A stretch of DNA of 64,000 nucleotides from Dehalococcoidia bacterium (lineage in GTDB: Bacteria > Chloroflexota > Dehalococcoidia > UBA2979): assembly GCA_965262725.1 (NCBI GenBank), contig OZ253555.1, forward strand, positions 1,477,256-1,541,255, read 5' to 3'. Below are positions 1 through 37,383 of this stretch, in pieces (the stretch's first letter is position 1; each line of letters starts with the position of its first letter). A program made the position numbers and the translations under genes. A model generated the notes under the pieces. The model ran no database searches, had not been told where the DNA came from, and saw only the letters and a program-made list of their open reading frames with translations.

Positions 1-77
1 CCCCGCGCGACGAGTTCGTACGCGAGGTTGCGCGAGATGCGCAGTAGCGCGGCCGCCTCTCGCACAGTCAACAGCAT
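1..77 (-). CDS. Partial HTH DNA-binding protein, excisionase/AlpA/MerR-like (HTH_17 type). Only the N-terminus is in the window; the gene continues beyond position 1.
   Basis: Minus-strand ATG at 77..75. The translation MLLTVREAALLRISRNLAYELVAR... is the classic excisionase-family helix-turn-helix. The ORF runs off the window edge. Confidence 0.5.
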   Translation of the reverse strand, partial: MLLTVREAAALLRISRNLAYELVAR

Positions 78-913
78 GGCGTCCTCAGGCACGGGCCTCC
101 TCCCTTCCGGATGAGATCGTCGTGTCAAGCCCCGCCGTGTGGAACCGGAGGGCGGTGCCCGTCCGACGGCCATGCTCATCTGGCTCGACGTGTGGCGATT
201 GCCAGATCGGTCCCAGCAGTCCCGCCGCAACCGGTGTGCCCTGCCCGAACCGCCATTCGGCGGTGAGGCGCAGCGGCAGGCGGGTCAGTGACCCGCGCTC
301 GGCACGGCGAGCGGCGCGTGCGACGTGCTCCTCGGCGCGGTCGTCGGCGCAGACGAAGAGCAGCACCGGCTCAGCGTCGAAGTCCTGCCGCCACGCCCCG
401 GCCGCGAAGTAGCGCCGGTATCCACCGAACCGACGGGCTGAAGCGCGCGCTCCGGCACTTCGGGGCGCGCTTCGGCAACGGGCTCGGGGCCGCGCCGGCC
501 GGCAAATTCCCGGGCGGAGCCGGGGCCGCGCCCGGCGAACTGCGCCGCCGCGTGCTTCAGATCGCGGCCGGAGCCGGCGCCGACGAGGAATGCACGCGCG
601 AATGGATCGCGCGGCGCTACGGCTGCTCGCTCGACGAGCTCGACGGCCGCCGGCTGCTCGCCGCGGTGGACGCGCTCTCGCGCGGACTGCATCGCCGCAA
701 CGGGACCCGGGCGGCCTGAACCGATGGACTACCGCCCCAGCCGCGTCATCGAGACGCGCCACGGACGATACGACGTCGCCCGGATCCCGCTGCCCGAGTG
801 CCCGATCCCAGGCTTCCGGGCCTGCCTCATCCAGGCCGTCGACGCCGATCGCCCCCAGGCGCGGGCGATCCGACTCACGCTCTACGAGCGTCTCGACCCG
901 CGCCCTCGTGGGG

Positions 914-1822
914 ATGCTCCCGGTGCGGCGTAGGCAGCCGGGCGGCCGGACCGACCCCTACCAGGAGATCACCGGCCGCATCATCACCGCGCTTGCGCGC
1001 GGCACCGTGCCATGGCGCACGCCGTGGCGCGCCCGCGGGCACAGGAACGCCCGCTCCAACCGCCCCTACCGCGGCATCAACACGCTGGTCCTCCAGATGA
1101 CCGCGCTCGAGCGCGGCTGGAGCGACCCGCGCTGGCTCACCTACCGCCAGGCCGAGGCCGCGGGCGGGCACGTGCGCCGCGGCGAGCACGGCACGCGCGT
1201 CGTGCTCTGGAAGTGGACCGAGCGGAGGGACCCGGAGGACCCCGAGCGGGTGGAGCGTTTCCCGCTGATTCGCCTCTACGCCGTCTTCAACGTCGACCAG
1301 TGCGAGGGCGTGACGCTGCCCGCACGGGTGGACGGCGGCTGTCCAGATCCGCTGGAACGCGCGGAGGCGGTGATCGCAGGCTACCGGGACCCACCGACGC
1401 TCCACTGGGACGCCGAGGGCGCCTACTACGTCCCCGAGCGGGACGAGGTGCACGTGCCGCCGCGCGCAGCCTTCAGCGACGCGCACGGCTACTACGCGAC
1501 GCTCTTCCACGAACTCGCCCACTCCACCGGTCACCCCAGCCGCCTCGCGCGCGAGGGCTACCGGACCGCCGCCCGCTTCGGCTCCGAGCGCTACTCGCAG
1601 GAGGAGCTGGTGGCGGAGTTCGCGGCCGCCTTCCTCGGGAGCGAGGCCGGGATCGACCCCTCAAGGGTCGATCAGTCCGCCGCCTACATCGCCTCGTGGC
1701 TGCGCGTGCTCGACGACGACAGGCGCCTGGTCGTGGTCGCCGCCGCACAGGGACAGCGCGCCGCCGATCACATCCTCGGGCGAAGTCCCGAGACGCCGGA
1801 GCCGCCGGAAGCGGCGGCCTGA
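914..1822 (+). CDS. ardC: ArdC-like antirestriction protein: N-terminal ssDNA-binding domain plus C-terminal HExxH zinc-metalloprotease domain.
   Basis: Within ORF 590..1822; ATG at 914 lies just before the conserved DPYQEITGRIITALARGTVPW start of ArdC_N. Also seen: RGINTLVL, YRQAEAAGGHVRRGE, and the metalloprotease motif FHELAHSTGH (HExxH). The upstream 108 codons of the listed ORF are Arg/Pro-rich and probably not coding. Confidence 0.8.
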   Translation: MLPVRRRQPGGRTDPYQEITGRIITALARGTVPWRTPWRARGHRNARSNRPYRGINTLVLQMTALERGWSDPRWLTYRQAEAAGGHVRRGEHGTRVVLWKWTERRDPEDPERVERFPLIRLYAVFNVDQCEGVTLPARVDGGCPDPLERAEAVIAGYRDPPTLHWDAEGAYYVPERDEVHVPPRAAFSDAHGYYATLFHELAHSTGHPSRLAREGYRTAARFGSERYSQEELVAEFAAAFLGSEAGIDPSRVDQSAAYIASWLRVLDDDRRLVVVAAAQGQRAADHILGRSPETPEPPEAAA

Positions 1823-1947: not shown

Positions 1948-2265
1948 ATGCCACGACGGATCATCTGCTGGGAGATCACCGACGCGTTCTCGAAGTTCGG
2001 CTTCGACGACGGCGATGGTCCCAACTTCACCGACGAGGTCGCCGCCGCCATCGAGGCGGCCGGCCCCTACCGCTGCCGCACCCAGATCTGGGGGCTCCAC
2101 AACTACGGGATCGAAACCATCGAGGAGGAGGTCGCGCCGGAGGAGTGGGTGCGCGTTGCCGAGTTCGACGGCTACGAGCTGCCGCCCTGGGAGAGCCTCC
2201 CGGGTCCCGTGCGCGACGCGCTCGTCGCCCTCAACGACGGCGAGTCGCCCGCGTGGCGGCTCTGA
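1948..2265 (+). CDS. Hypothetical small acidic protein (105 aa).
   Basis: ATG at 1948 is preceded by a strong SD (GAAGGAG, 1935-1941). Amino-acid composition is diverse (MPRRIICWEITDAFSKFGFDDGDG...). No homolog recognised. Confidence 0.6.
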   Translation: MPRRIICWEITDAFSKFGFDDGDGPNFTDEVAAAIEAAGPYRCRTQIWGLHNYGIETIEEEVAPEEWVRVAEFDGYELPPWESLPGPVRDALVALNDGESPAWRL

Positions 2266-2272
2266 GCGATTC

Positions 2273-2323
2273 GCGTGCGGACGTGGCCGGACAGGCAGTA
2301 CCTGTCCGGCCACGTCCGCACGC
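2273..2323. terminator. Perfect 23-bp stem / 5-nt loop hairpin just after the stop codon at 2265; a factor-independent terminator-like structure (no U-tract, as is common in high-GC genomes).
   Basis: gcgtgcggacgtggccggacagg-cagta-cctgtccggccacgtccgcacgc, read directly from the sequence. Confidence 0.5.
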
Positions 2324-2594
2324 GATCCGGCCCCTTGCGACTGGTCCAAGGGGAAGGACGCGCAGGCGATAGAGCTCCGCGCCGGTCGCGATGACGTGGG
2401 CGTGCAAGGTGGGCGGGTCAACGACCTCGGCGGCGATCCGGGTATCTGAGAGGGTCTGATCCGACTCCGGGGCGGGAGCATTCATAGCGACCGGCGGCCG
2501 TTGCTAACAGTCGGTGAGTCGTCAGGCGAGCTACGACAGCCTCTCGAGCGCCTTGAACCTCGCGATCCCCCGCTAAGGCCGGCAACGGCCGAGC

Positions 2595-3479
2595 CTAGTC
2601 GCCGTAGGAGTCACGCGCCGTGCGAATCAGGTCTGTAAGCTCGTCACTACGCTCTTCCAGATCGTCGTCCGTGACACGCATTCGGTAGTGGTTCCAGCGT
2701 GTGTCATACGGAAGCATTTCCAAACCAGACTCTTCGAGGCGCTCCGTGAGTTCGTCGGAGCGGGGGATCTTGAACTCGGCGATCACGTGCTTTCGGCGCG
2801 GCCGAAACAGGATGAAGTTTCGTGCGACGCCGTGGCTCGCTAGCCCTACGTAGTGCTTGTTGTACTTCGGCTGGAGGTCAGGTTCGATACGCTGGATCAT
2901 CCCGGAGAATTCATCCACCAGTCGAACCGACTCGCGCGACGCTCGCCCCTCCCAGTAGGCCCGGTCGACCGTCTCCCCCTCCTCGTCCTCAGGCATTCCT
3001 AAGGCCCTGACATCGACCACTCGCGTAAACACTAGCGTGAAGGCGCCATTGACCTCGATGCCCTCCACCTGAATCGCCACGAGCGGGATGAAGCCGTTGA
3101 ACAGACTGATCACGTTGAGGAAACGGCTCGTCACGTCCTCCGCGACGAGCACCGCCACGTGGTCGTACTGAGGGTAGCGACGCTTCTCGATGTCCCAGTA
3201 CTCGATCGTGCGGACGATGTGCGACTCGTCGGTCGCGCCGAGCTGGAGCTCGACCTCATAGCGTGTGAGCGTCTCAGGGTCCGACAGCAACAGATCGAGA
3301 CGCCCAGCCCGCGGCTGGCGCCGCTCGCTGTCCCTCACCGCCAGATCGCCCAGCCCCAAGAGCGTCGGGTCGTCGATGAGCCGCTTGTGCAGCCATCGCT
3401 CATTGAGCTCCGGGTGGCCGCTCAGGCTCACACGCTTCGGCTTGTGGAACTCCATCTCGGCCCCCGAACCGCCAGCCAT
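2595..3479 (-). CDS. Hypothetical protein with an N-terminal PD-(D/E)xK-like nuclease-fold signature (ExQ variant).
   Basis: 294-aa ORF with diverse composition. GRLDLLLSD...RYEVELQLG resembles the D...(D/E)xK core of restriction-endonuclease-like folds, with Q in place of K. It lies downstream of hsdR on the same strand. Confidence 0.6.
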   Translation of the reverse strand: MAGGSGAEMEFHKPKRVSLSGHPELNERWLHKRLIDDPTLLGLGDLAVRDSERRQPRAGRLDLLLSDPETLTRYEVELQLGATDESHIVRTIEYWDIEKRRYPQYDHVAVLVAEDVTSRFLNVISLFNGFIPLVAIQVEGIEVNGAFTLVFTRVVDVRALGMPEDEEGETVDRAYWEGRASRESVRLVDEFSGMIQRIEPDLQPKYNKHYVGLASHGVARNFILFRPRRKHVIAEFKIPRSDELTERLEESGLEMLPYDTRWNHYRMRVTDDDLEERSDELTDLIRTARDSYGD

Positions 3480-4143: not shown

Positions 4144-7281
<3,138 letters not shown>

Positions 7282-7356
7282 TCCCGCCGCCTGACGCTCG
7301 CGACCAGGGTCTGCGCGCGATCAAGCACACTCAGGATCCGCATCACGGTCTCAGAC

Positions 7357-8349
7357 TTACTCGTCGCGACCTGTGTCGCGGTGGGTCACGCGTATCTCAC
7401 CTGACATGATGCGCGGTAGCACCAAGTCCCGACCACCGGCCAACGTGCGCGAGAGTTCCGAACTCGAATCTGACGATGCATAGAGGGGATCGGCTAGGTT
7501 CGCGAAACCAAGGAGTACAGACTCAGGTGGGACCACCACTGGTTGTGTCTTGAGATCCCGCTGGGTTATCAGTGGCTGAGTTGAACCGCGGTTCAAGTTA
7601 GACAGGTCCATTTCGCGGACGACTCCAAAGAGCCAGGCGAACTCGGGGTTGCCTCTGGGAATGATGACTAGCGTGTTATCTGACGGCCACACAGGGAAGT
7701 TGACACGGTGTACGACCCCGAGAGTGCCGACGCGTCCCGTGATTATGATGGGGAAGTCAAAGCGCGCGTCCGTGGTGTACGCCATTGCTCCCGCGCCCCC
7801 GAAGACAGGGACGTCGGCCTCGACCCCAGGGCACGAATGCCGTTGCTCCGGTCGCTTCCCACTGAAGATGTCAGCCACGTCGCCCAGCGTTTTCGCCTCC
7901 CACCCCGCCGGTATCTCCCCCAGCTCTGATGTCTCGAACGATGCGGGGAACAGCGCGTCGAGGTTGGGAAGGAGGCCCGAGGACCGACCCTCGGCCTTCG
8001 CGCGCACTGGGTCGAAGTCCACGAACCACGACCGAAACAGCGACCGCGCCATCTCTTCGAGGGTCTCGCTCATGCGCCGGTTCATCTCGATCCGGTCGTC
8101 GAGCGCGCCGAGCACGCGCGCGATGGCGCGCTGCTCGGCGAGGGGCGGGAGGGGGAGTTCGACGAGGCCGATGTCCGCCTTCCTCAGTCCGAATCGGGTC
8201 ACACCGTTCGCGTATGCGTGAAACTGCTGCTGTACTCCTCGTGTCTTGAGCGTATAGAAGAGATATGTGCCGTCGATCTCCCGCTTGGCGCGGAGGATCG
8301 CGAGATGGTAGCCACACAGGAGGTTCGGGAGATTCTCCCGTACCAGTGC
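7357..8349 (-). pseudogene. hsdS: hsdS 3' fragment (conserved central region, second target-recognition domain and C-terminus). Separated from its 5' part by an IS5-family insertion.
   Basis: The 7357..8202 track ORF extends in-frame up to a stop at 8482-8484. From codon A(8349-8347) onward it reads LVRENLPNLLCGYHLAILRAKREIDGTYLFYTLKT...GLVELPLPPLAEQRAIARVLGALDDRIE, the canonical HsdS TRD end plus conserved spacer. Sequence 8350-8481 in the same frame is IS-derived read-through. Confidence 0.85.
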
Positions 8350-9565
8350 TGGAACCCCTATGTCGTCATGCGCCTCCGAGTCCTTAGGGCAAGTCTGGAC
8401 AAGTGGGTCTGGCGGCGCAAAACGGGCGCGAGGAGCGCTTCTCGCGGGCGGGTTCGATGAAGTGAGCCATGTTCGGCCCTCTCAGGGCCCCTGCGGCTTC
8501 CCGTCCTCGCCTCTCTGGGGCGAGGTGGGCACACTCCACCCACGGTCAGGCACAGTGCGGCTTTGCGGTGAGCAGATTATGGACCCCCAGCAAGACCGCA
8601 CACCGCTCGTGGTTCTTGAAGAGGCCCCGGTACCGCACCTTGGCGTAGTCGAAGCGCCGCTTCACCGTATAGAACGGGTGCTCCACCAGCGCCCGCGCCG
8701 ACGCCTTCCGTTTCTCCTCGACGGCCTCAGGACTCTCCGGGTCGAGCTGACGCCGTAGGCCCGGGCGCATCGCCACGTTCCAGTTGTCGACCCCCGAGTC
8801 CGCGTTCTCGGGTCGCTTGTCCACGCCCCGGTATCCGGCATCGCCGTAGACTTCGGCTTCCTCGCCGTGCAGCAGACGGTACGTCTCCGACACGTCCGAC
8901 ACGTTCGCAGGCGTCGTCGTGAAGCTGTGGACCAGGCCCGTGTCCCTGTCCGCGCCGATGTGCAGCTTCATCCCGAAATACCACTGGTTGCCCTTCTTGG
9001 TCTGATGCATCTCGGGGTCCCGCGCCCGCTCGCGATTCTGCGTCGACGACGGCGCCGAGATGATGGTCGCGTCCACGATGCTGCCCTCGCTCAGCTTCAA
9101 TCCCTCGCTCGCAAGGTGCTCGTTGATGAGCTCGAAGATCCTGCTCCCCAGGGAGTGGCGCTCGAGCAGGTGACGGAATGTGAGGATGGTCGTCTCGTCG
9201 GGGATCGGCCCGCGCAGGGTGAGGTGGCAGAAGGCTCGCACCGACTCGGCCTCGTGGAGGAGGTCCTCCGTGCCGGGGTCGCTGAGGTTGTAGCAGAGCT
9301 GCACGATGTGGATGCGCAGCATCACGGAGAGAGGGTAGGGCCTCCGCCCGCGGCCGGGTTTCGGGTAGTGGGGCCCGATGGCTGCTTCGAACCTCTCCCA
9401 CGGGACGAGGCCGTCCAGCCGCTCGAGGAACTTCTGGCGGCGCGTCGTGTAGCCATCCTGCTCGAACTCGACCCTGGCGAATGTGGGCTGATGCATGGCA
9501 CGCTCCCATCCCTGTTACGCGTCAGGATCTCACCTGATCAGCAGAGTGCGCAATACTCTGCTGTC
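8350..9565 (-). mobile_element. IS5-family (IS5-group) insertion sequence, 1216 bp, inserted into hsdS with a 4-bp target duplication GTGC (8346-8349 and 9566-9569).
   Basis: Joining the flanks after removing one GTGC copy restores an uninterrupted HsdS reading ...GDVIITKGALGKLA|LVRENLP... The transposase ATG lies 70 nt from the right end, as in IS5. No clear terminal inverted repeats could be found by eye. Confidence 0.8.
8546..9496 (-). CDS. IS5-family DDE transposase (InsH-like), 316 aa.
   Basis: RRPYPLSVMLRIHIVQLCYNLSD, DATIISAPSSTQN, KKGNQWYFGMKLHIGADRDTGLVHSFTTTPANVSD and C-terminal KRRFDYAKVRYRGLFKN parallel IS5 InsH. Confidence 0.9.
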   Translation of the reverse strand: MHQPTFARVEFEQDGYTTRRQKFLERLDGLVPWERFEAAIGPHYPKPGRGRRPYPLSVMLRIHIVQLCYNLSDPGTEDLLHEAESVRAFCHLTLRGPIPDETTILTFRHLLERHSLGSRIFELINEHLASEGLKLSEGSIVDATIISAPSSTQNRERARDPEMHQTKKGNQWYFGMKLHIGADRDTGLVHSFTTTPANVSDVSETYRLLHGEEAEVYGDAGYRGVDKRPENADSGVDNWNVAMRPGLRRQLDPESPEAVEEKRKASARALVEHPFYTVKRRFDYAKVRYRGLFKNHERCAVLLGVHNLLTAKPHCA

Positions 9566-10130
9566 GTGCCAACTTTCCCAGAGCTCCCTTAGTGATGATC
9601 ACATCGCCCTCGTAGAGAGAGCACCTGCTGATCTCGCGATCGGTAGCGGTCGCGGGCATGAAGGCCATGTCCGCATAGATGAAGTCGTAGTTATACACGT
9701 CCGTGTAGTTGCAGAGCAGAACCGGACGCTCGCCGGCCTTCGACTTCTTGTCGACACTGCTGAGCGTGAGTTCCACGACCTCGCCGAGAGCCACCGCCGG
9801 CCACTCAGCGTCCCGTGGAGCTTCCTGCATCACTACGCAGTCCGACTCGATCGCCTCACGGAAGCCGTCCGCGATGGAGTGCCAGTCGACCACGTCCACC
9901 CGCATGGGCAGCCGGGACTCTTCGAAGGCCTCCTTGAGCCGAGCGAGAGCCCCGCGTGGTAGCGGCCCCTCACCGACGACGGCCAGGTCGAGGTCCGAGT
10001 AGTCCTTCGCGTTCCAGATCGCCCGGGATCCGAATGCTCGCACCTCGCACGCCGGCACATGCTCGGCCAGGATGCGCGCGACGATCGCCAGATCGGGGGG
10101 GCTGAGGTCAACCGAGACCTTCACTCCCAC
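9522..10130 (-). CDS. Minimal nucleotidyltransferase (MNT/MntA-like antitoxin, aa 1-100) reading in-frame, without a stop, into the hsdS 5' fragment (HsdS aa 1-88; first TRD N-terminus), then into IS-derived sequence up to the stop at 9522.
   Basis: NTase motif AFGSRAIWNAKDYSDLDLAVVGEG. From M101 (ATG 9830-9828) it reads MQEAPRDAEWPAVALGEVVEL...GDVIITKGALGKLA, a typical HsdS N-terminus with the GDxLxxxxGxxGK TRD motif. The HsdS part ends at 9567; codons 9566-9525 come from the IS. Confidence 0.7.
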   Translation of the reverse strand: MGVKVSVDLSPPDLAIVARILAEHVPACEVRAFGSRAIWNAKDYSDLDLAVVGEGPLPRGALARLKEAFEESRLPMRVDVVDWHSIADGFREAIESDCVVMQEAPRDAEWPAVALGEVVELTLSSVDKKSKAGERPVLLCNYTDVYNYDFIYADMAFMPATATDREISRCSLYEGDVIITKGALGKLARQQSIAHSADQVRS

Positions 10131-10543
10131 GCCTCTCCGGTAAGAGCCCCGTGGAGCTGGACGGCGTCCGACACGAACTCCGGCATGACCGCGATGGCAT
10201 TCGCCGCCTTCGCCCTGTCGTAGTCATGGGTCGTGTCGATCCGTGTCTGGATGTAGCGCTCCCACTGCCGACCCCCGGCCGCCAGGAGACCGTTCTCGTC
10301 AGCCATCCGGAAGACAGGCCTAGGGCTGTTGGGAACCTCGACGATGCCGAGCGACTCGACCAGATGGCGCCGGAGCACCTTCCACAGCACGTCGTAGCAA
10401 GTCTCGAAGCGCTGAATCACCGACTCGGCCATGGCCTCGTGGACGAACGACGGATAGTCCGGCGACAGATGCAGCAGGTGCGCGTGCTGCATCTCCAGGT
10501 TCTTCAGTGACTTCCGGAAGTTTCCGTAGTCGATCGCCATCTT
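10121..10543 (-). CDS. HEPN-domain protein (nucleotidyltransferase substrate-binding / HepT-like toxin family), partner of the downstream MNT.
   Basis: Rx4HxY HEPN motif RIDTTHDYD. Overlaps the MNT start by 10 nt, a typical toxin-antitoxin operon arrangement. Likely start is the ATG at 10543 (MAIDYGNF...); the track ORF begins 13 codons further upstream. Confidence 0.7.
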   Translation of the reverse strand, partial: KMAIDYGNFRKSLKNLEMQHAHLLHLSPDYPSFVHEAMAESVIQRFETCYDVLWKVLRRHLVESLGIVEVPNSPRPVFRMADENGLLAAGGRQWERYIQTRIDTTHDYDRAKAANAIAVMPEFVSDAVQLHGALTGEAWE

Positions 10544-10627
10544 GTTTGCGCCGCCTCTGGTCCGATCCGCCTCGACCGCCATTCTAGGACCCGGAGCGCG
10601 GGGCGGTGATGACGCGGCCCCTCCGTA

Positions 10628-12225
<1,598 letters not shown>

Positions 12226-12229
<4 letters not shown>

Positions 12230-20469: not shown

Positions 20470-20942
20470 TTTCTCCCTACAGGCCCTGCGTCCGCCGGTT
20501 CGCGATCGCGACCCGATGCAGGTTCAGCCGGGCCGCGCGGCCCGGGCGCTCTCGATAATCAGCATCGAGCGAGACACGTGCGCGCTCACCGAGGGCGTCA
20601 CTGAGCAGGTTGGACCTCTCTTTCCAGTTGAAGGACTGAAGGCGCGCGCTCAGGCGGGACACTTCTTGCTCCGCCCACGCCTGAGCATGCCGCTCCAGCC
20701 AAGCGGGCCGATGCCGCGACTCGCGTGCTGCTGACTCTCCGGGGCGGTGTACGGGGGTGCCCGAACCGCCTGACGCGTCCCCGGCATGTGAATCGCCAGG
20801 ATCTATAGACCAGCAAACGGCCAGATCGCCAGGGTCATTGATCCACTTCGCCAGGGTCATTGAGCCACCCCTCCGGGGGGTCTGACCACTCGGGCCGCCG
20901 GTACGGCCACCATCGCCTGCATCCCCAGCGGAGGGAGCAGCG

Positions 20943-22523: not shown

Positions 22524-23293
22524 CCGCCACCACCTCAGACCTCCGCCCGCTGCTCAAGCGCCTCAAGCTCGGCCGTATGCTCGACACCCTGCCCGAGCGC
22601 ATCGCCCTCGCGCGGCGCGACCACCTCGACTACGCGGACTTCCTGCAGATCCTGCTCGTCGACGAGGTGAGCCGCCGCGACCACGGGCGGTTGGAGCTGC
22701 GCCTGCGCCAGGCCGGCTTCGAGCAGCTCTGCCGCCTCGAGGACTTCGACTGGGCGGCCGCCATCCGGCTCGACCGCCGCCTGCTCGACGCCGCCTTCTC
22801 GCTGCACTTCCTCGATCGCCGCGAGCACGTCCTGCTCGTCGGCCCCGTCGGCGTCGGCAAGAGCTTCTTAGCCCAGGCGCTCGGCTACTCAGCCGTCCGC
22901 TCCGGACGCAGCGTCCGCTTCGCCCCGGCCGACCACTACTTCCGCGAGATGGCGCAGGCCCGCGTCGACCACTCGGCCGAGAAGGTCTTCCGAAGCTTCC
23001 TCGCGCCCGACCTGCTCATCCTCGACGACCTCGGGCTCCATCGCCTCAGCGCGCAGCAGTCCATCGACCTCTACGAGCTGGTCATCGGGCGCCACCGCAG
23101 CTCCAGCTTCGTCATCACCTCGAACCGCGCCGTGGAGGAATGGCTGGGTCTCTTCGACGACCCGATCCTCGGCAACAGCGCCCTCGACCGCCTCGCCAAC
23201 GCCAGCTACCAGATCGTGATCGAGGGCGATAGCTACCGCCAGCGGCTCTCGCCGCACCGCGCCCTGCTCGAGGCGCAGACGGGAGGTGATTGA
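22520..23293 (+). CDS. istB: IS21-family ATP-binding helper IstB (DnaC-like AAA+), 257 aa.
   Basis: Walker A LVGPVGVGKSFLA. Walker B LLILDDLG. The start ATG overlaps the istA stop (ATGA at 22520-22523). Confidence 0.9.
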   Translation: MTATTSDLRPLLKRLKLGRMLDTLPERIALARRDHLDYADFLQILLVDEVSRRDHGRLELRLRQAGFEQLCRLEDFDWAAAIRLDRRLLDAAFSLHFLDRREHVLLVGPVGVGKSFLAQALGYSAVRSGRSVRFAPADHYFREMAQARVDHSAEKVFRSFLAPDLLILDDLGLHRLSAQQSIDLYELVIGRHRSSSFVITSNRAVEEWLGLFDDPILGNSALDRLANASYQIVIEGDSYRQRLSPHRALLEAQTGGD

Positions 23294-23485
23294 CGCGCTA
23301 GACGCTCACTGATATCAAGCCGCCTACCGGCGTCCCGGGTGGTCTAATGACCGTGGCGACGCGTGGCTCAATGACCCTGGCGATCGACACGGCACTATGT
23401 TGGCACGTATAAATTCACATAGATTCACGTCTAATTCACTGACAGTAGGCCGACAACCGGTCAGAATCCCATCTCGTTACGGGCA

Positions 23486-23800: not shown

Positions 23801-23852
23801 CTAGCGCATCCCTATCTCACGAAGTCCATCGCAGTGCGAGCGGATTGCCCAA

Positions 23853-26558
23853 GTGACGAGTCTGCTGCGGCTTCTCGATCCGAACGAGCCTGACTCGGCG
23901 GCGCGAGCTGCCGGGGCTGTCGCCGCCCTGCTCGACCGCCTGCCGTCACCACGCTCAATCGCCGAACTTCGTCTCGGGCCGGAGGACGTTGAGTGGCTGC
24001 GAGTGTGGGCGGGCGGGATGTCCGCTGCAGCGGCGAGGTGGAGCGGCGACCGGCGGCTCCTGGGCGACCTGGGGGCCGCGCGCCAGCAGGCGTTCGGGCT
24101 GGTCTTCCTCGCACTCGCGGCTGAGACGGCGCGGCGGGATGCGGCCGAGGGGCACGTGTGGGGCCCCGTCCGGCGCCGCGTATCCAGCGCGGCCGCCTCG
24201 ATGCTCTTCAGTCAGGGGCAACCGAAGCAAGCGCTCAAGGACGCGCTGGAGTCCGCGTGCAGGCGCTGGCAGTTGCGGCATGTCTTTGGAGAGGAAGGCC
24301 TGCAAGCCTGGTACGCCTCGGTCTACCTTCAGTTCGGGTTCACGGAACGGACCATCGAGTCGCGACTGCCGGCGCGGCTTGCGAATGCCGAAGCGCTGCC
24401 CATAGCGGTTCACCACCTGCTCCACGACCGGAGACTGAAGTCCGACTCGTTCGCGTCCCTCTGGAACACCCTTATCGGTGTGCGCCGTCGCAACGTATCG
24501 GACTTGAGAGCCCGCCAAGTGCTTGCGGGGAGCCCGTGGATTCTGCCGGAGTGGACTGACGCGCTCCTCGAGGCTGCCGTGGCGCGCATGGAGTTGACGC
24601 CGTCGGGCCTGTCCGATGAAGAGGTTGCGCCCTCGCTCTTCACCGTTCCGCGTCTGGAGTGGGTCGGTCAGCAACCGCGCTTCATCGCCGAACTGGTCAA
24701 CCTTGCCGACGTCGCCGGCGAGTTGGAGCCGGGTGCCTACCGATTGCGGGCCGGCACGGTCAGCGTGGAGTTCACGATCGACGACCTCGGCACCCCTCAC
24801 GGCCTGCGCCCGGTGGGACTTCCACTGTGGCCAGCCCGGCTCACCGCCACAGTTGAGCAGCACCACGGTGAGGACTCATGGGATCCCGTCGCTGGCGAAG
24901 AGATGGTCCTGTGGGAACCCTCCGACGAAGTCGCCGCCTTCCGCGACGACGGGTTCCCGCTGGACGCCTGGAGCACCGCGCTGCACCCAAATCAGCCCTA
25001 CACACTCGTGCTTGCACCGGGACTCGACGTCAAGCCCGTCCAAGACCGTTGGGCGCATGCGGATGGATGCCTCGCGGTCCAGTTGCCGGCTGGCTGGGCG
25101 GAGGATACGGGCGTGTACCTCGATGGCGAGAGAATCTGGGATCCGCTCGTCACCGCCGATGGCCAGAAGACGCTTGCTGGGCTGTCTATGCCTCCCGCTG
25201 GCACGAGGCTGGGTGAAGCACCGAGGATTCAGTTGTTCGGCCTGTCGGAGCGGGTCACTGAAGTAAAGGCCGATCGGCGTGCAGTGGCCTTCGAGCAGCA
25301 CGGGGGGAGCATCGAAGCGTTCCTTTCCCCCGGCGAGCACGCCGCCCGCCCCTCCGTGCTCGTCCGCACCAAAGACGCAAGCGGAGAGGTTAGGGCGGGG
25401 CGGATTCAGCTCACCTGGTTCGGGGCCCAGCACCTTCGCCCGTACGGCTGGGCGCCGTTCCCGGTCGGTGTGATCGATGAGCGCGATCTCGGTCAGCGCA
25501 TCCGCGCGTTCGCGCCGGAGTGGCGTGAGCCGACATTGCTGGTTGGCAACCGTCCGATCGGGCGGATCGGCAGCCGCGGTCGAGCACGGGGCTCGGTGGG
25601 AGCGTGGGGCGCGCCGCTTCTCATCGCCGATGGGCAGTTCAATCGCGAGCCCGACCGCCAACTGCTGCTGGCCGATGCCATCACGTCTCGCGGCGTCATC
25701 CTGGACATGAACGATGACGACTTCGGAGGCGCGGCCCTGGTCACCCTCCGGCAGCCCGTCAACCTCGGCGAGGTCAGAGTCTTCGGCATCGATCGCGGCG
25801 GCGCTGTCGACGACATCCGGCCCACCCCAACGGGTGAGCGGTCGTGGGTGATCGAGGTGCCTCCAGAGAACGCCCTGGCGATCGTCTACGGGGAGGAATG
25901 GATTGGGGGGTGGTGGTGGCGGCCCCCCGTACCGCCCCAGTCGGCCGAAGGTGCCGTTCACCTGATAAGGCTGCTGCGCGACGCGCGGGCTCCGCTGCTC
26001 TCGCGTGACTATGGCGGTTGGGCGCGGGGAGCGCTGCGCGCGCACCCCGCCAGCGCGCTCGTCTGGCTCTTCAACCTCAGCGAAGCTGGAACGCTCTCCG
26101 CCGCGCCGCCGGAATCAGACGACTTCGCTCCAGTGGTTCGCGACCTGCTCGACGGATGGGAGCCGGACCACATATGCGTCGCTCACCTTGCCCGAACTCT
26201 GCGTGACTCAAGCGAGGAGTTCATCGAAGGGCTCGCCGACACTGCTCTGCGAGCGCCGGGCCCGACCGCACGCCTGCTCAGTTCAGTCTTCGAGGACTCG
26301 GGGCTCCGGCGGCGTGTCCGCGGAGCCCTCCTTGAGGCGCTTGGTTGGGGAGACGCATCGAGCGCCGGCGTGCTCAATGAGATCGGATGGCAGTTCGATG
26401 TGGACAGCGGGTTCCTTGAACGTCTCGGGCGGTTAGCGAACGATGGGTTGCGCGGGCAACCGATTCCCCGCGTGCAGCGGCAGAATCTGCTCGTGGCGAT
26501 GAACCTGAGCGGCGACTTTCGGCGGTGGCTCGCCGGACGCCTGATCTCGGAGGACTGA
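23853..26558 (+). CDS. druH: Large (901 aa) protein with no recognisable domain: a DruH-like partner of the downstream DUF1998 helicase (Druantia type III-like architecture).
   Basis: GTG start at 23853, stop at 26558. Composition is non-repetitive and Trp-rich. No known motifs were recognised. The stop lies 4 nt before the SD/GTG of the next gene. Confidence 0.8.
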   Translation: MTSLLRLLDPNEPDSAARAAGAVAALLDRLPSPRSIAELRLGPEDVEWLRVWAGGMSAAAARWSGDRRLLGDLGAARQQAFGLVFLALAAETARRDAAEGHVWGPVRRRVSSAAASMLFSQGQPKQALKDALESACRRWQLRHVFGEEGLQAWYASVYLQFGFTERTIESRLPARLANAEALPIAVHHLLHDRRLKSDSFASLWNTLIGVRRRNVSDLRARQVLAGSPWILPEWTDALLEAAVARMELTPSGLSDEEVAPSLFTVPRLEWVGQQPRFIAELVNLADVAGELEPGAYRLRAGTVSVEFTIDDLGTPHGLRPVGLPLWPARLTATVEQHHGEDSWDPVAGEEMVLWEPSDEVAAFRDDGFPLDAWSTALHPNQPYTLVLAPGLDVKPVQDRWAHADGCLAVQLPAGWAEDTGVYLDGERIWDPLVTADGQKTLAGLSMPPAGTRLGEAPRIQLFGLSERVTEVKADRRAVAFEQHGGSIEAFLSPGEHAARPSVLVRTKDASGEVRAGRIQLTWFGAQHLRPYGWAPFPVGVIDERDLGQRIRAFAPEWREPTLLVGNRPIGRIGSRGRARGSVGAWGAPLLIADGQFNREPDRQLLLADAITSRGVILDMNDDDFGGAALVTLRQPVNLGEVRVFGIDRGGAVDDIRPTPTGERSWVIEVPPENALAIVYGEEWIGGWWWRPPVPPQSAEGAVHLIRLLRDARAPLLSRDYGGWARGALRAHPASALVWLFNLSEAGTLSAAPPESDDFAPVVRDLLDGWEPDHICVAHLARTLRDSSEEFIEGLADTALRAPGPTARLLSSVFEDSGLRRRVRGALLEALGWGDASSAGVLNEIGWQFDVDSGFLERLGRLANDGLRGQPIPRVQRQNLLVAMNLSGDFRRWLAGRLISED

Positions 26559-26562
26559 CGTA

Positions 26563-29500
26563 GTGCCGGGGAAGCTGGACTCACTCGGGCTCGCGGAGTC
26601 GCTGCGGCGACGAATGGCCGACTTCGCGTCGGCGGACCTGTACGTGACGGACCCCGAGATTCAGCGCGCCGCCGGGGCCGTATGGGAGGACGAGGAGTCG
26701 GGGCTGGTTGGCGAACTGTGGGTCGAGGGGATCATGCCGCCAATGCCCGGTCAGCGCCTACAGAAGATCGCGGAAGCGGGCGGGTTCGACCAAGACTTGC
26801 TCGGGCGCCTGACGGAGTCTGGCGCTTGGGGCGACTGGCGGCTTCACGAGCACCAGGAGCGCGCCATTCGCGCTGCCTCGAGCGATCTAGGCGGCGCCGT
26901 CATGGTTTCTGCGGGCACTGGCGCTGGGAAGACGGAGAGCTTCCTGTTGCCGCTCGTCGACCGGCTGTGGAGCGCGCCTCGCCGCGGTTCCGGCATGCGC
27001 GCGCTCATCCTCTACCCCATGAACGCTCTCGTCCGTGACCAGATGGATCGCCTTGATGCGTGGCTTGGCGGTCAGTCCCGGCTCACCTATTTCCACTTCA
27101 CGAGCGAGACACCCGAGACTGAGTCCGAGGCGGACCGGCGTGGGATAGCGAAGCAGTTCGCGAGCCGCGTTCGATCGCGGGACGAAGCGCGGCGCGCTCC
27201 TCCCGACATCTGCGTGACGAACTACTCGATGCTCGAGTACATGCTCGCTAGGCCGCAGGACGCACCATTCTTCGGCGAGGGGCTCGAGGTCGTCGTCCTC
27301 GATGAGGCGCACCTCTACACGGGGACGCTCGCGAGCGAGATCATGTTCCTGCTGCGCCGGGTGCTGCTCCGCTGCGGACTGACCGCGACGGACATCCTGC
27401 ACCTCGCAACGTCGGCGACGCTCGGCGGCGACGACGACGAACTGCGGGCGTTCCTCTCCCAGCTCACGGCCACGCCGCCCGGGCGCGCCTGCGTCATCCG
27501 GGGGCGACCTCAGCCGTCCGCGCCGCTGCCTGCGTCAGGCAGCGACCAACGTGCCGGAGCACTCGTGCAGCTCGATGGTAGGCTCCCTTCCAACGCTGGT
27601 GGGACCGATGTGTTGTCAATACTGGGGGCGGAGACTGACGACGACTCCGACGCGCCGATCGTGCTTGGTCGGCGGTTGGCGGACTGGCCCGCCACGGAGC
27701 GCCTGCGGTCCGCCCTGCACGCCGAGCCTGGAGTGCCACACCTTCTAGTCGAACTCGCCGAGAAGGTGTGGCCTCACGGCGGCAAATCGAATGTCGCTGC
27801 CACCGCCGCTCTGCTGCGCTGGACGTCAATAGCTCAATCGGGGCCGGACGCTCCGCTGCTCGCGCATCGGCTGCATCTGCCGCTGCGCGGCCCTGGCGGG
27901 TTGGGCCTCTGCCTCAACGGCGACTGCTCAGGCCCCGAGGAACGGCAGAAGACCGGATGCGGCGCTGTCCAGGATGCCCGTGGCGACCGATGCCGCTGGT
28001 GTTCCTCTGTCGTCCTGCCGATCGCGCGCTGCGAGGGCTGCGGGCTCGTGGTGCTCACCGCGCGGCAGCAACACGCGAGATTCGTGCCGGAACCCGTTCC
28101 TGGTCGCGGTACGAGGCGAACCGCGATGGAAGTGCGCGGCTTACTGCTCGGGTTCGCCGACCCTGCACCGGGGGCGGTGGAAGTGCTCCCGGACGGTTCG
28201 GTGGGAGGCGGAGGCGTGCGCCTGCGCCCCCTGCCGCCGCTCGATGCTGACACGCCGTACGAGACGGGCTGCGCACACGAATTATTCGAGCCGCTCGCGC
28301 GCGGCGCCGGGTTGCTGCTGAGCGTGATCGCCGAGACATCTCTCGCCGCTATGCCGCCGGACAGCGACCCCGATCGCGCCCGCACGCGGCCCGCCGGGGG
28401 CAGGCGGCTGCTGGTGTTCAGTGACAGCCGCCGGGAGGCTGCCCGGCTCGGGCCGGCGCTCACCTGGGGCCATGAGGTGCAGCTAGTTCGGGCGGAGATC
28501 CTGCGGCTGATGGACGCTGCATCCCCGGACGATGTGTCTGCAACCCGCGAGTACCTCAAGTCTGACATTGCTCGCCTGCAGAATCTGCTGGAGCGGGATC
28601 CCCCATCATCGACGCGCCAACTCATCGAGCGGGACTTGGCTGACCGGGTGACGGACCTACGGGCGCACATCCTGGGCGGGCCCATGCACGACTGGGAGCG
28701 CGCCTTGGCCCGTTCGGACAAGCTCGCTGAGATCCTGTCGTTTGACGGGGCGAGCATCCACCGGCGGGCCGAGTGGAGTGACGAGTCGTGGAGCGAGAAT
28801 CACCGGGCGAACGGCAGGCGCGCCCGCGCGTTGCTGGCGCGTGAGTTCGTCGCCCCACCCGGTCGGAGCGCCGGCGCGTCGCTCGAGGCGCTGGGGCTGG
28901 CGCTCGTGGACTATCCGGAGCTGCGTGAACTGCCGCCGCCAACGCTCGGCCAGTTGCCGAGTACGATCCGCGAGCGTGCGGTCGAACAGTGGCCCCAGTT
29001 CGTCGCAGCCCTGCTCGACTCGCTTCGCGTTGACGGCGGGATTACAACGGGCGAACAGGAACTCGACGACTACTACTCCGAGGACCATGCGCCGATCGGA
29101 AAGTGGATCAGCTTCGAAGGCCCGGACCGGCGCGACCGCGCCCGGTTCCGCGGCGCCACCTCGCGGCACAGGCGGAATGCCTTCCTCATCCGATTGCTGC
29201 TCGACTTCGGCGCGACGGGCGAGCAGCTGGATGAGTTCGAGCCGTTGCTGGCGCGCGCCGCCTTCGACTGGTTGCGAACCGCGGAGCCACGCCCCGAGTG
29301 GCTGGAGCGCCACCAGACCGAGCCCTGGTTCCGCGTGCGGTTCCCCGATCTCGCGCTGCGCAGGCCGGACGAGGTCTGGCTGGACGAGAGCCGCCTCATC
29401 GTCGGGTTCGTAGTGAATGGCCGCCATCCGCGGGGAACCGGCCGCTTCGTGCAGCGGAGGCAATCCGAGCTTGACGCCGATCCCCGCTTCCAGCGCCTGC

Positions 29501-31686
29501 GGTCGGAGCTCCGTGAGGAACCGTCGCTCCGTGTCGGCCTGTGGGCGGAGGAGCACTCCGCGCAGCTTTCGCCGGAAGAAGCGCGGCGTATTCAGGATCT
29601 CTTCGAGAGCGGGGTCCGCAACGTGCTGAGCTCGAGCACGACGATGGAGCTGGGTGTCGACATCGGCGGCCTGAGCGGCGTCCTCATGACCAACACGCCG
29701 CCCAGCCGCGCCCGCTACCTACAGCGAGCCGGGCGCGCGGGACGGCGCGGCGAGGGAGCCTCGGTCACCCTGCTGTTCGCCCGCAACCAACCGTTCGACC
29801 AAGAAGTCTTCCGGAACTTCGCGCAGTATCTCAGTGCCCCGATGCGGCCCCCGTCGGTACTGCTCGAACGGGACCGTCTGTCGCTGCGGCACGCCTACTC
29901 GCACGTTCTCGGCAGCTTCTTCCGCGCGCTGTGGGAGCCGGGCCAGAGTACGAGCACCATGGGAGCGTTCCGTCAGATGGGGGACTTCACAGGCAGCCCG
30001 TCGACCGTGCGGTGGCGATCCGGCCCCAAACCCGGGATCAGCGATCAGCCGCACCCGCCCGATCCCGCCTCGCCACCTGCCTGGTGGACCGCCGATGGCG
30101 GCCCACTCGAGGCACAGTTTCGGCGGTACATCGAGCACCTGGCCGGCCACCCGGGCGGGATCGCCGCCGACCTTCGGACCATCTTGTCCAACGCGAGAGC
30201 CGAGGAGCAGCTCGACGACTGGCCAAGATTCTGCGAGGAACTCCTCGACCGCTTCGACGAGTCGACCGCCGCATGGCGCGGCGAGTTCGACGAGTTCCTC
30301 GCCGCATGGGACCTGGCTGGGACAAGGCCGCTTGCTAACTTTCTCCACTTCCAGCTCGCCGAGCTGCGCGGGCGACCGGTGATCGCGCATCTCGCCGAGC
30401 ACCAGTTCCTGCCTCGCTTCGGTTTCCCACTGGGAGTCCTGCAGCTTCGCATCGACACCGACCGGGCCAATGGTGATTCCTGGGCGCTCGATCGGTCCGG
30501 GGCGTTGGCGCTGCGGGAGTACGCGCCGGGTGCGAAGGTGCTGGCGGGTGGACGGCAGATCACCTCTCGCGGGCTCGTCAAGCACTGGGTCGGGGAAGAC
30601 GAACAAGCGCTCGGTGCCCAGCGCCGCCTCCTGACGTGCTCCGAAGAACACTCGTATCTCTCAACCGGCGTCGCGCTGCACGATGAGTGCCCGTACTGCG
30701 GGGCAGCGCCGTCGGGGTCGGGAAACCAGGTCATCAGGGTCGCGCGCGGCTTCAAGACCGCGGCGTGGGATCCTCCGCGGCGCGCACGAGGAACGGAGCT
30801 CGTTGGCATGATCGAGGTCGTGCCGCCCGCCATCGGTCACGCGATGTCCGGCGAGCACACGGATGTCGAGATCGAGTCCGTGCCCGGCCTCCGCGCGGTC
30901 CACCTCGAGGGTGCGCAGCTGATCACCCTCAATGCCGGGGAGCACGGCTTCGGATTTCACATCTGCTATCGGTGCGGCTACGCGGGCTCCGAGCTTACGC
31001 GAGCGGCCACCGGGGCTCAGAACCTGCCGCCCGCGGCTCAGGATCACTCGCCCCTCTGGATGCGCCGCCGCCGCCGCGCTTGCTGGACCCAGGGCGCGCT
31101 GTCTTCGTTCGCTCGCAACCGTGTCCTGCTGCACGAGGAGACGACGGACGCGCTCGTGCTGGACTTCCGGGGCTGGAGTGTGGACCTGCGGGCAGAACGC
31201 GGTGCCCTGCTCGCCTGGGCTGCCGGATTGCCGCATGCGGTCGGGCAGACGCTCGACCTCGACGCCGGGGATGTCGCCGCCTCCCCGTACCCATTCAGCG
31301 ACGGCGTGGGCATCATCCTCCACGACACGGCTGCGGGCGGCGCCGGCCATGTCTCCGAACTGCTGCGAGGCTCCATGGCGCGCGATGTCCTCGAAGCCCT
31401 CCGCGTCCGCCTGTACGTCGACGAGGCGCACAACGCCCGATGCGTGCAGGGCTGCCTCTCGTGCGTGTTGAGCTACGAGGCGCAGCACTTGGTCGAAGTC
31501 GGCCTCGATCGCCCGCGTGGGCTCGCGCTCCTCGACGCGCTCCTCTCGGGCGGCGCAGGCACCATGCCGGAGCCCAGCCCCGCGCCGGCCGATGGGACAC
31601 CGATGCTGCAGCACGATGCGGAGGAACGGATAGCTCACGCTGCGGCGCGCAGACGCGGGCGATCCCGAAGGCGGACTTCAGGGTGA
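26563..31686 (+). CDS. druE: DruE-like SF2 helicase (1707 aa) with a C-terminal DUF1998 zinc-binding domain.
   Basis: Motif I VSAGTGAGKTESFLLP. Motif Ia LYPMNALVRDQ. TNYSMLEYML. Motif II VVLDEAHLYTG. Motif VI YLQRAGRAGRRGEG. C-terminal Cys clusters CPYCGAAPSG, FHICYRCGYAG and CVQGCLSCV match the DUF1998 4-Cys motif. GTG start with SD GGAGGA at 26549-26554. Confidence 0.9.
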   Translation: MPGKLDSLGLAESLRRRMADFASADLYVTDPEIQRAAGAVWEDEESGLVGELWVEGIMPPMPGQRLQKIAEAGGFDQDLLGRLTESGAWGDWRLHEHQERAIRAASSDLGGAVMVSAGTGAGKTESFLLPLVDRLWSAPRRGSGMRALILYPMNALVRDQMDRLDAWLGGQSRLTYFHFTSETPETESEADRRGIAKQFASRVRSRDEARRAPPDICVTNYSMLEYMLARPQDAPFFGEGLEVVVLDEAHLYTGTLASEIMFLLRRVLLRCGLTATDILHLATSATLGGDDDELRAFLSQLTATPPGRACVIRGRPQPSAPLPASGSDQRAGALVQLDGRLPSNAGGTDVLSILGAETDDDSDAPIVLGRRLADWPATERLRSALHAEPGVPHLLVELAEKVWPHGGKSNVAATAALLRWTSIAQSGPDAPLLAHRLHLPLRGPGGLGLCLNGDCSGPEERQKTGCGAVQDARGDRCRWCSSVVLPIARCEGCGLVVLTARQQHARFVPEPVPGRGTRRTAMEVRGLLLGFADPAPGAVEVLPDGSVGGGGVRLRPLPPLDADTPYETGCAHELFEPLARGAGLLLSVIAETSLAAMPPDSDPDRARTRPAGGRRLLVFSDSRREAARLGPALTWGHEVQLVRAEILRLMDAASPDDVSATREYLKSDIARLQNLLERDPPSSTRQLIERDLADRVTDLRAHILGGPMHDWERALARSDKLAEILSFDGASIHRRAEWSDESWSENHRANGRRARALLAREFVAPPGRSAGASLEALGLALVDYPELRELPPPTLGQLPSTIRERAVEQWPQFVAALLDSLRVDGGITTGEQELDDYYSEDHAPIGKWISFEGPDRRDRARFRGATSRHRRNAFLIRLLLDFGATGEQLDEFEPLLARAAFDWLRTAEPRPEWLERHQTEPWFRVRFPDLALRRPDEVWLDESRLIVGFVVNGRHPRGTGRFVQRRQSELDADPRFQRLRSELREEPSLRVGLWAEEHSAQLSPEEARRIQDLFESGVRNVLSSSTTMELGVDIGGLSGVLMTNTPPSRARYLQRAGRAGRRGEGASVTLLFARNQPFDQEVFRNFAQYLSAPMRPPSVLLERDRLSLRHAYSHVLGSFFRALWEPGQSTSTMGAFRQMGDFTGSPSTVRWRSGPKPGISDQPHPPDPASPPAWWTADGGPLEAQFRRYIEHLAGHPGGIAADLRTILSNARAEEQLDDWPRFCEELLDRFDESTAAWRGEFDEFLAAWDLAGTRPLANFLHFQLAELRGRPVIAHLAEHQFLPRFGFPLGVLQLRIDTDRANGDSWALDRSGALALREYAPGAKVLAGGRQITSRGLVKHWVGEDEQALGAQRRLLTCSEEHSYLSTGVALHDECPYCGAAPSGSGNQVIRVARGFKTAAWDPPRRARGTELVGMIEVVPPAIGHAMSGEHTDVEIESVPGLRAVHLEGAQLITLNAGEHGFGFHICYRCGYAGSELTRAATGAQNLPPAAQDHSPLWMRRRRRACWTQGALSSFARNRVLLHEETTDALVLDFRGWSVDLRAERGALLAWAAGLPHAVGQTLDLDAGDVAASPYPFSDGVGIILHDTAAGGAGHVSELLRGSMARDVLEALRVRLYVDEAHNARCVQGCLSCVLSYEAQHLVEVGLDRPRGLALLDALLSGGAGTMPEPSPAPADGTPMLQHDAEERIAHAAARRRGRSRRRTSG

Positions 31687-32208
31687 TCAACAGCCGTCGT
31701 GTAGTTGGCGGTATAGCCGTACCACCCTCCCAAAGCAGCGCTCAGAACGAGAGCGCCAGATACAACCTGGCACATCCCTTTTCCCTTTTCGCACGACCGC
31801 AGCTTCATACCGATGTTTGCCCGGTGGTGACACCAGACGGCAGCGGCAGAGCCAGTGCCAAGGGGCCTCGTCTCCGTAGGCATGCGTGGCGCAAGGGAGT
31901 GGTATGAGCCAGGACGGAACGTCATGTGAGTCCGTCATGTCAGGTTCAGAGAGGGCTCCAAGACGAGTTGGTGGCACAGGCTGGGACGGCTGGCGGCGAA
32001 CTCAAAACCCGTTGGGGCCTCGAATTGTCGGCGACGGCAAACTGGCAAGAACACAATTGCTAAGGAAGGCAGCAATTGGGGACCAGTTTGGGGATCAACA
32101 CGGGGGCACAGGACGGTACGACAGGGGACGCGGAGTGACGGCGACCGCTCGATTCACGATTGGAGCGGGACCAGATCGCACGTCCGGGGACCAATCAACA
32201 CCGATTCT

Positions 32209-32264
32209 GGGGGCTTCATAAGCCCTTGGTCGCAGGTTCGAATCCTGCCCCTGCTACCAACCTT
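32209..32264 (+). repeat. 3' half of tRNA-Met(CAT) (tRNA positions ~26-76, plus CCA and 5 downstream nt). An att-site-like partial copy of the tRNA gene found at 54441..54516.
   Basis: gggggcttcataagcccttggtcgcaggttcgaatcctgcccctgctaccaacctt matches the tRNA gene at 54441..54516 (opposite orientation) except for one base in the anticodon stem. There is no D-arm or 5' acceptor strand upstream. Confidence 0.8.
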
Positions 32265-32271
32265 CGCGCTC

Positions 32272-37367: not shown

Positions 37368-37383
37368 CGGGTGCCTCCTGTGG

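Follow-up and report, generated by a model that had tools for sequence, protein, structure and literature searches.

Islands inserted at tRNA genes follow a well-known plan. Site-specific integration into the 3′ end of a tRNA gene leaves, as its standard outcome, a pattern of attB, attL and attR sites, and islands of the ICEclc/PAPI-1 type belong to the same comparison class as other elements of tRNA hotspots. In the actinomycete elements pSAM2 and SLP1, a xis-int-attP array lies beside the tRNA 3′ end and is accompanied by Rep and transfer genes, and the leading regions of conjugative plasmids and integrative and conjugative elements carry modules with ssb, ardC and other anti-restriction genes. 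In E. coli, defence-carrying integrative and conjugative or mobilisable elements at tRNA hotspots were mapped by Hochhauser et al. 2023 (PMC10121019). The present analysis deals with a 64,000-nucleotide (nt) stretch of contig OZ253555.1 (the window), from the metagenome-assembled genome (MAG) of a Dehalococcoidia bacterium, whose positions 1-32264 hold a block of defence genes that stops at a partial copy of tRNA-Met. This block is a defence-cargo island from an integrative element of conjugative type at a tRNA hotspot, a known kind of island, unusual only in its inverted att sites and its Chloroflexota host. It probably represents the attR-side arm of a decayed element of a Chloroflexota family, which was inserted in the tRNA-Met gene of the window itself and whose arm was flipped.

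Like the E. coli elements (PMC10121019), the island shows an insertion at a tRNA 3′ end with duplication of the 3′ part, a backbone with a variable slot occupied by different defence systems in each strain, and presence or absence by strain at one hotspot. It departs from them in that attL and attR are inverted, in that integrase, relaxase and type IV secretion system (T4SS) are lacking from the window, and in its Chloroflexota MAG host. With pSAM2 and SLP1 it has in common an att core spanning the anticodon arm to the tRNA 3′ end, and HTH_17 and Replic_Relax remnants near one end, whereas int, rep and an FtsK-like tra gene were not seen, and the relatives of the island carry a T4SS (TrbL, VirB4-like, coupling protein) and not a single-protein Tra. 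The resemblance to leading regions lies in the arrangement Rad52-(SSB)-ArdC beside T4SS genes in the relatives and in an ArdC protein composed of ArdcN and metallopeptidase domains, but in the window this module is cut at position 429 and unlinked to transfer genes.

Two tRNA genes were found in the window by ARAGORN, a tRNA-Met(CAT) at 54441-54515 on the minus strand and a tRNA-Val at 61773-61849. The sequence-only reading of this DNA, whose text left out the intact tRNA-Met(CAT) gene on the opposite strand, had the block stop at a 3′-half copy of tRNA-Met, and this is borne out: of the 55 nt at 32210-32264, 54 agree with the reverse complement of 54436-54490, a match as good was absent from 100 shuffles, and a weak tRNA-like Rfam match (25 bits) extends over 32182-32256. 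The tRNA-Met gene is identical in contigs L085 to L088, and the adjoining amidohydrolase gene (54819-56273) has 100%-identical copies on four contigs from other samples. An empty site, which the sequence-only reading had advised looking for in related genomes, was found in L086. This conspecific contig aligns with window 54436-64000 at 99.4%, and its tRNA-Met is directly followed by the reverse complement of window 32265-34977 (96%), with no trace of the foreign P′ arm that follows the gene in the window. The counterpart of window 32210-34977 is L086 9672-6881, in reverse complement and at 96%, and in that contig it is contiguous with the tRNA. Read on the tRNA strand, with a slash at each junction, attB (L086) is tRNA...ACCAACCTT/CGCGCTCTTGCTGG, attL (window, 54.4 kb) is tRNA...ACCAACCTT/TACCTAGAATTAAC and attR (window, 32.2 kb) is ...GATTCTG/GGGGCTTCATAAGCC...ACCAACCTT/CGCGCTCTTGCTGG. 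The three sites share the core ...ACCAACCTT base by base, and the attB of L086 equals the left half of attL joined to the right half of attR. The empty site thus makes 32210-32264 (attR) and the in-window tRNA (attL) the two products of one target site, and the block ends at the true attR of a site-specific integration into tRNA-Met.

The foreign arms on the two sides of the core have features in common. The P′ arm of attL, absent in L086, is 99% identical in L085, L087 and L088. The motif TGGGGAYCA has five matches in the window versus 0.78 expected, and four of the five form two tandem pairs, one in each arm (P and P′), which have the same orientation with respect to the core. A repeat of about 66 nt, here called repeat X, occurs at 54215-54273 within P′, at 31745-31810, at 15174-15245 of L142 and at ~9397-9459 of L085, the four copies forming one alignment, and the alignments of L087 and L088 cover the 54215-54273 stretch as well. 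The TGGGGAYCA pairs and repeat X are candidate arm-type motifs on both sides of the core. Repeat X lies 3′ of druE in two genomes (the window and L142) and inside P′ beside tRNA-Met in the window and L085; its interpretation as a pure arm-type site was rejected, since it is found as the 3′ tail of the DruE cassette where the context is unrelated, too. About 210 nt of the P arm (31804-32016) are 88% identical to L089 16032-16255, 4.7 kb after the p105 gene of that locus, and were discarded as a structured RNA (no Rfam match; folding z-scores of +0.34 and -1.8). Another part of the P arm, 32143-32190, resembles 32561-32609 in the native flank over 49 nt (77.6%), with a motif, GGACCnAnnGCACGTCCGGGGA, that occurs nowhere else in the window.

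In the sequence-only reading, the block was likely the right arm of an integrated element, and its intact tRNA-Met and tyrosine integrase were placed left of the window, in keeping with the orientation of the fragment. A plus-strand fragment with the P arm on its left does fit an element extending leftward, the HTH_17 gene at the left edge also points in that direction, as xis does in the xis-int-attP array of pSAM2-type elements, and in sister species (91-92% identity) a tyrosine integrase of 435-440 amino acids (aa) lies directly beside tRNA-Met, which makes this tRNA a recurrent target. But L086 shows that the DNA which follows the fragment, from 32265 onward, belongs natively downstream of tRNA-Met 54441-54515, and this gene already has the complementary attL and a foreign P′ that shares the arm repeats, so that a second tRNA-Met left of the window is not needed. 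The model would call for another gene with an identical 55-nt 3′ part, for which nothing asks, and no homologue of the HTH_17 gene was seen among the fetched related loci. A tRNA-Met left of the window is unlikely, and we regard this model as a whole as quite improbable; its one-directional series of tRNA, integrase and island does not fit a locus whose two junctions face opposite ways. As for the HTH_17 gene (Pfam E value of 8.9e-6, 26.3 bits vs a cut-off of 27, for 25 visible aa), it may be part of the element or of DNA joined to it by rearrangement. The idea that window 1-192 once adjoined the aroA-distal side of 54186 was set aside, the metagenome relatives of aroA (70-73%) having no HTH gene.

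The attL and attR cores are inverted and 22,171 nt apart, with element DNA outside the pair on one side, and are therefore not in the direct orientation of a tRNA-targeted element. Such a pair means either that arm, attR and native flank were inverted or that the assembly is wrong. Two contigs of the same species, L085 and L087, have the same attL and P′ followed by a ~4-kb remnant of a related element (Replic_Relax-like open reading frame (ORF), Rad52, Uma2 and a McrB-like gene). At 72-79% nucleotide identity, this remnant matches window 202-961 and 14060-14731 but runs the other way, and it then meets the native flank at the equivalent of window 32549. This layout indicates that the un-inverted order would be tRNA, P′, backbone, cargo and flank. 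Since all three parts in the window, arm, attR and native flank, run opposite to it, an inversion seems to have occurred. The inverted flank is confirmed against L086 to at least 35566, with 34969-35762 continuing in that contig, and L143 independently confirms 35387-39086. Its genes are a truncated lipoprotein-like ORF, YgjP, a 57-aa HsdR remnant, APH, a GyrI-like gene and a second APH. In the 57-aa ORF (33372-33545, minus strand), which separates YgjP from the first APH, a match to the final 45 positions of the HsdR C-terminal domain (E value of 2e-5) suggests that the flank common to all strains is the residue of an older type I restriction-modification (R-M) island at the same hotspot.

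Homology of the backbone to its relatives begins abruptly at 429, and over 429-2258 (Rad52 C-terminus, p69, ArdC and p105) nucleotide identity reaches 82-92% in L002, L009 and L089 (91.7% with L089 by blastn). The backbone gene order of L144 and L145 is that of the window. What follows p105 differs from one locus to another: a different type I R-M system in L145, an ADP-ribosylglycohydrolase with nuclease-like genes in L002, Septum_form and DUF2207_C genes in L089, and an RCC1-repeat gene in L144. The closest relatives of ArdC (83-86% aa identity) come from Dehalococcoidia/Tepidiformaceae MAGs, and the 302-aa gene call agrees with the database record, in which the exact p69 sequence is found as well. 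In L008, TrbL, Rad52 and SSB are encoded upstream of an ArdC 83% identical to that of the window, so that the homology of the backbone reaches T4SS-bearing elements. L146, which shares the Replic_Relax fragment with the left end of the window, encodes TrbL, a pilin, a VirB4-like ATPase, a primase, a coupling protein and, beside these T4SS genes, a full Replic_Relax of 634 aa, PF13814 being carried by the homologues of the 85-438 fragment. The shared backbone, the differing cargo and the T4SS of the relatives together indicate that the defence genes are cargo in a variable slot of a conjugative-type family. The mobile or conjugative origin that the sequence-only reading had read from ArdC is consistent with the conjugative relatives (L008 and L146). 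In the window, T4SS genes, a coupling protein and a relaxase are absent save for the 117-aa Replic_Relax-like fragment, and tblastn detected no remnant of the primase modules of related elements anywhere in it. A search of viral contigs with ArdC gave distant matches only, at most 44% identical, and on such evidence the family is not phage-like. The full backbone copies of L089, L144, L002 and L009 contain, upstream of Rad52 and before a DnaG-type primase, conserved proteins of 199-220 aa and 328 aa with no Pfam match, and no recombinase was found near them in these four loci. In L010, from a related Dehalococcoidia MAG, 47 nt that duplicate the 3′ half of tRNA-Glu (4923-4969) come after the ArdC-p105 arm, and the intact tRNA-Glu (8713-8788) lies 3.7 kb further on the same strand, another non-canonical att layout in the family.

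Every gene listed by the sequence-only reading is present and contiguous in 1-32264, with five corrections, and for three of the defence systems its picture holds in part. In the type I R-M system with HEPN/MNT, HsdR, HsdM, MNT and HEPN are present, but hsdS is split by an element of the IS5 family of insertion sequences (ISs), so that the intact HsdS of a type I system is missing; excision of this IS in silico gives back a single 545-aa MNT-HsdS frame. The same R-M arrangement, including the interruption of hsdS, was found in L001, an independent metagenome contig. In the McrBC-like module, a McrB-like AAA_5 protein is encoded, but the McrC match is partial and its ORF overlaps the end of mcrB; both proteins fall far under the equivalog cut-offs of NCBIfam (McrB 3e-45, McrC 4e-14). 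Of the DruH/DruE pair, DruE is strongly supported by its DruE3 match, but the 901-aa protein named DruH matched no model in PADLOC, Pfam or NCBIfam. Druantia type III, as Doron et al. 2018 and PADLOC are said to define it, consists of DruH and DruE. The cassette of the window resembles this type in its ~1700-aa DruE with DEAD, Helicase_C and MZB domains, in its best match to DruE3 and in the large protein encoded 4 nt upstream, and differs from it in that this upstream protein has no DruH model match. The 901-aa protein and DruE co-occur in many contigs, and the former may be regarded as a putative DruH by its position and conserved pairing with DruE. The anti-phage role of the Druantia-like cassette is equally putative. 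At 95% identity, the cassette reappears in the different context of another genome, L142, with a serine-recombinase fragment and core genes as neighbours, so that it moves on its own. The interruption of hsdS and the 'DruH' without a model match weaken the picture of working systems.

The remaining cargo includes a KAP NTPase with weak PifA and QatA N-terminal matches (PADLOC, NCBIfam), whose 5′ region contains a hexanucleotide repeat, (GCCCGT)x8.5, at 19920-19970 (detected with TRF), translated into a Gly-Thr run if the longest start is used. The IS21-family element that follows is composed of istA (rve) and istB (AAA) within terminal inverted repeats (I7), and near-copies of it (97.5-97.7% identical) occupy other sites in L086 and L089. 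A compositional contrast of the block with the core region, as proposed by the sequence-only reading, did not emerge: GC content is ~69% over the window, with 0.69 in the block vs 0.694 in the core (54.5-64 kb), and neither GC at third codon positions nor tetranucleotides gave a useful contrast.

The history that we infer for the preferred reading would start with the entry of the element into the 3′ end of tRNA-Met(CAT) 54441-54515 by site-specific recombination. The arm has kept a short backbone (Rad52 fragment, p69, ArdC and p105), followed by ~29 kb of variable cargo (type I R-M with MNT/HEPN, McrBC-like module, KAP NTPase and Druantia III-like cassette), into which the IS5-family and IS21-family elements have inserted. 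The arm terminates in P and then attR, the duplicated 3′ part of the tRNA, attL being formed by the intact tRNA followed by P′. Finally, an inversion would have taken in the arm, attR and no less than 3.3 kb of the native flank, leaving attL and attR as inverted repeats 22.2 kb apart.

Several observations weigh against this history, and the first of them concern the assembly. The orientation of attR relative to attL comes from one assembly, no independent contig spans 39087-54186, and the near-identical contigs of other samples (L001, L090 and L143) stop short of the left edge of the window. L143 differs from the window past a second IS21 copy (IS21#2, a 2.5-kb repeat), a join that reflects either strain variation or misassembly, and the 18-kb stretch that separates the native flank from P′, with its ISs, group II intron, pyrF and aroA, is attributed to neither the element nor the chromosome. 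The end points of the inversion are not fixed either: candidates are 54187, where identity with L085 stops within the last 50 nt of its Replic_Relax-like ORF, a left end near 193-202 or 429, and IS21#2 (36.5-39.1 kb), whose right flank is different from 39086 onward in L143, a contig from another sample that also has the element (L001 and L090). The integration could accordingly be real and its inverted orientation an artefact, in which a wrong join at a repeated IS such as IS21#2 flipped or misplaced the left 39 kb and the true att sites are direct. The source is, after all, a metagenome-assembled contig, and L143 is 99.8% identical to 35387-39086 and then enters other genes, in a sample that holds the element (L090 at 99.97%). 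Yet a 331-nt inverted duplication with nested ISs speaks for real rearrangements here, all three conspecific strains differ beyond the native flank, so that L143 is perhaps another allele, and the coverage of L143 is just 3x. We thus consider such an artefact unlikely.

To the same side belongs the observation that P′ is 99% identical to L085 while the neighbouring element genes are only 72-79% so, from which attL and the 32-kb arm could come from two successive related elements. Under a tandem accretion of this sort, attL and P′ would derive from an older element of L085 type, and the arm with attR from a later one that entered the older attR core, followed by deletions and inversion. The end of L085 identity at 54187, in the tail of a Replic_Relax-like ORF, would agree with it, as the arm of the window has its own, different Replic_Relax fragment. 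Nevertheless, no third copy of the core exists on either strand of the window, and mosaic recombination between related elements would produce the same pattern of identities. Accretion, which is compatible with the preferred reading and would refine its history, appears doubtful, with perhaps a modest chance of being right.

A last point of this kind is the recombinase, which was identified in none of the family members seen. An integrase just outside the left edge is possible, the HTH_17 gene pointing that way. No tyrosine or serine recombinase domain was detected by Pfam in the scanned ORFs of the window, and tblastn of the window with the tyrosine integrases of the sister species and the serine-recombinase fragment of L142 gave nothing. 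It is very improbable, though conceivable, that the Rad52-p69-ArdC-p105 and P-arm block represents an undescribed Chloroflexota element family with a defence slot and an unrecognised recombinase, the att pair being a recombinase-driven invertible segment of 22 kb instead of the dead end of a chance inversion. Returning to the decayed integrative element, signs of decay are seen in the split of hsdS by an IS, in the truncated Rad52 and Replic_Relax and in the cut of the backbone at 429. Given the inverted att sites, the truncated backbone and the lack of a recombinase in the window, a simple attL x attR excision would not be expected, so that the copy of the window would be immobile, and the island most likely persists as fixed defence cargo.

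The locus provides a base-resolved case of the formation and then the fixation of a defence island in a little-studied phylum, with attB, attL and attR all taken from natural strains. The content of this tRNA hotspot differs in every sampled strain, and the Druantia-like cassette and the type I R-M slot are exchanged between elements. The general understanding of such islands is unchanged, and the case may aid the annotation of Chloroflexota MAGs, with the caution that a tRNA fragment alone does not tell the position of its partner tRNA. The coordinates of the features are collected in the table.

Table. Features of the island, its attachment sites and the native flank in the window.
Feature	Position	Strand	Basis and remarks
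HTH_17 (MerR/excisionase-type) N-terminus	1-77 (start at 77, off left edge)	-	translation MLLTVREAAALLRISRNLAYELVAR, 25 aa visible
Replic_Relax-like pseudogene, C-terminal fragment, 117 aa	85-438	-	62% aa identity over 82 aa to a 176-aa ORF of L085
Rad52-like C-terminal fragment	429-719	+	tblastn: residues 129-224 of the 224-aa Rad52 of L144, 74% identity
p69, conserved 69-aa backbone protein	724-933	+	96% aa identity to p69 of L144
ArdC antirestriction protein, 302 aa	914-1822	+	Pfam ArdcN 2.9e-32, MPTase-PolyVal 1.7e-36
p105, conserved 105-aa backbone protein	1948-2265	+	88% aa identity to p105 of L144
Perfect 25-nt hairpin (repeat I6)	2271-2325		directly after p105; end of backbone, start of variable cargo
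DUF5655-like cargo protein	2595-3479	-	Pfam E 2.3e-4, 21.6 bits, under cut-off of 24
Type I R-M locus	4144-12229	-	Pfam; PADLOC Specificity_I
hsdR	4144-7281	-	full length, Pfam
hsdS C-terminal part	7357-8202	-	
IS5-family insertion, 1.2 kb	8388-9587		target duplication CTTAG at 8383-8387 and 9588-9592
MNT and hsdS N-terminal part	9522-10130	-	Pfam
HEPN-type NTase_sub_bind	10121-10582	-	Pfam
hsdM	10628-12229	-	full length, Pfam
McrBC-like module	12917-16603	+	AAA_5 GTPase, McrC-like, then unassigned 332-aa ORF
McrB-like AAA_5 GTPase	12917-14920	+	Pfam AAA_5 3.3e-21
McrC-like	14745-15572	+	Pfam McrBC 2.8e-31, profile positions 105-317 only
Unassigned 332-aa ORF	15605-16603	+	
KAP-family P-loop NTPase	17139-19982	-	Pfam KAP_NTPase 6.6e-19, 68.7 bits vs cut-off of 20
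IS21-family element	20787-23390	+	istA 20943-22523, istB 22520-23293; Pfam
Druantia type III-like cassette	23839-31822	+	901-aa protein, DruE and 3′ tail including repeat X
901-aa protein in DruH position	23853-26558	+	4 nt upstream of DruE
DruE, 1707-aa helicase	26563-31686	+	PADLOC DruE3 E 5.9e-188; Pfam DEAD, Helicase_C, MZB
Repeat X copy 1	31745-31810	+	80% identical to reverse complement of 54215-54273, E 1e-11
P arm of attR	31804-32209	+	conserved block 31804-32016; tandem TGGGGAYCA repeats 32077-32097
attR core	32210-32264	+	tRNA-Met 3′ part (anticodon arm to 3′ CCA) and 5 nt ACCTT
Native downstream flank of tRNA-Met (B′ and beyond), inverted	32265-36505		L086, L143, Pfam
P′ arm of attL	54187-54435	-	foreign, begins AT-rich; tandem TGGGGATCA pair 54351-54370; repeat X copy 2
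attL core	54436-54490	-	inside intact tRNA-Met(CAT) 54441-54515; integration target; Rfam tRNA 69.1 bits

Some minor observations concern the accessory stretch between the native flank and P′. The 331-nt inverted duplication (97% identical, 35567-35897 and 40598-40928) corresponds to the 5′ end of the second APH and encloses IS21#2 (36585-39018) and an IS110 element (39145-40335), its 40598-40928 arm keeping 16 nt more of the upstream sequence of L086 type. The group II intron (44696-49300) is broken by an IS: Rfam matches to domains D1-D4 at 44696-44917 and 46943-47079 flank an IS5-family transposase (45581-46645), and the ORF of the reverse transcriptase/maturase is at 47839-48699. In this IS-rich stretch, pyrF (41248-42012) and aroA (52850-54115) both exceed the equivalog cut-offs of NCBIfam, and no relatives of either with at least 90% identity were seen on conspecific contigs; they may be extra, foreign copies of housekeeping genes. 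After IS21#2, positions 3700-11121 of L143 encode a different set of defence-like genes, namely a Dcm-type methylase-HhH-GPD fusion, a HATPase_c_3 protein, PP_RS20740 and a YjiV_N helicase of 1802 aa.

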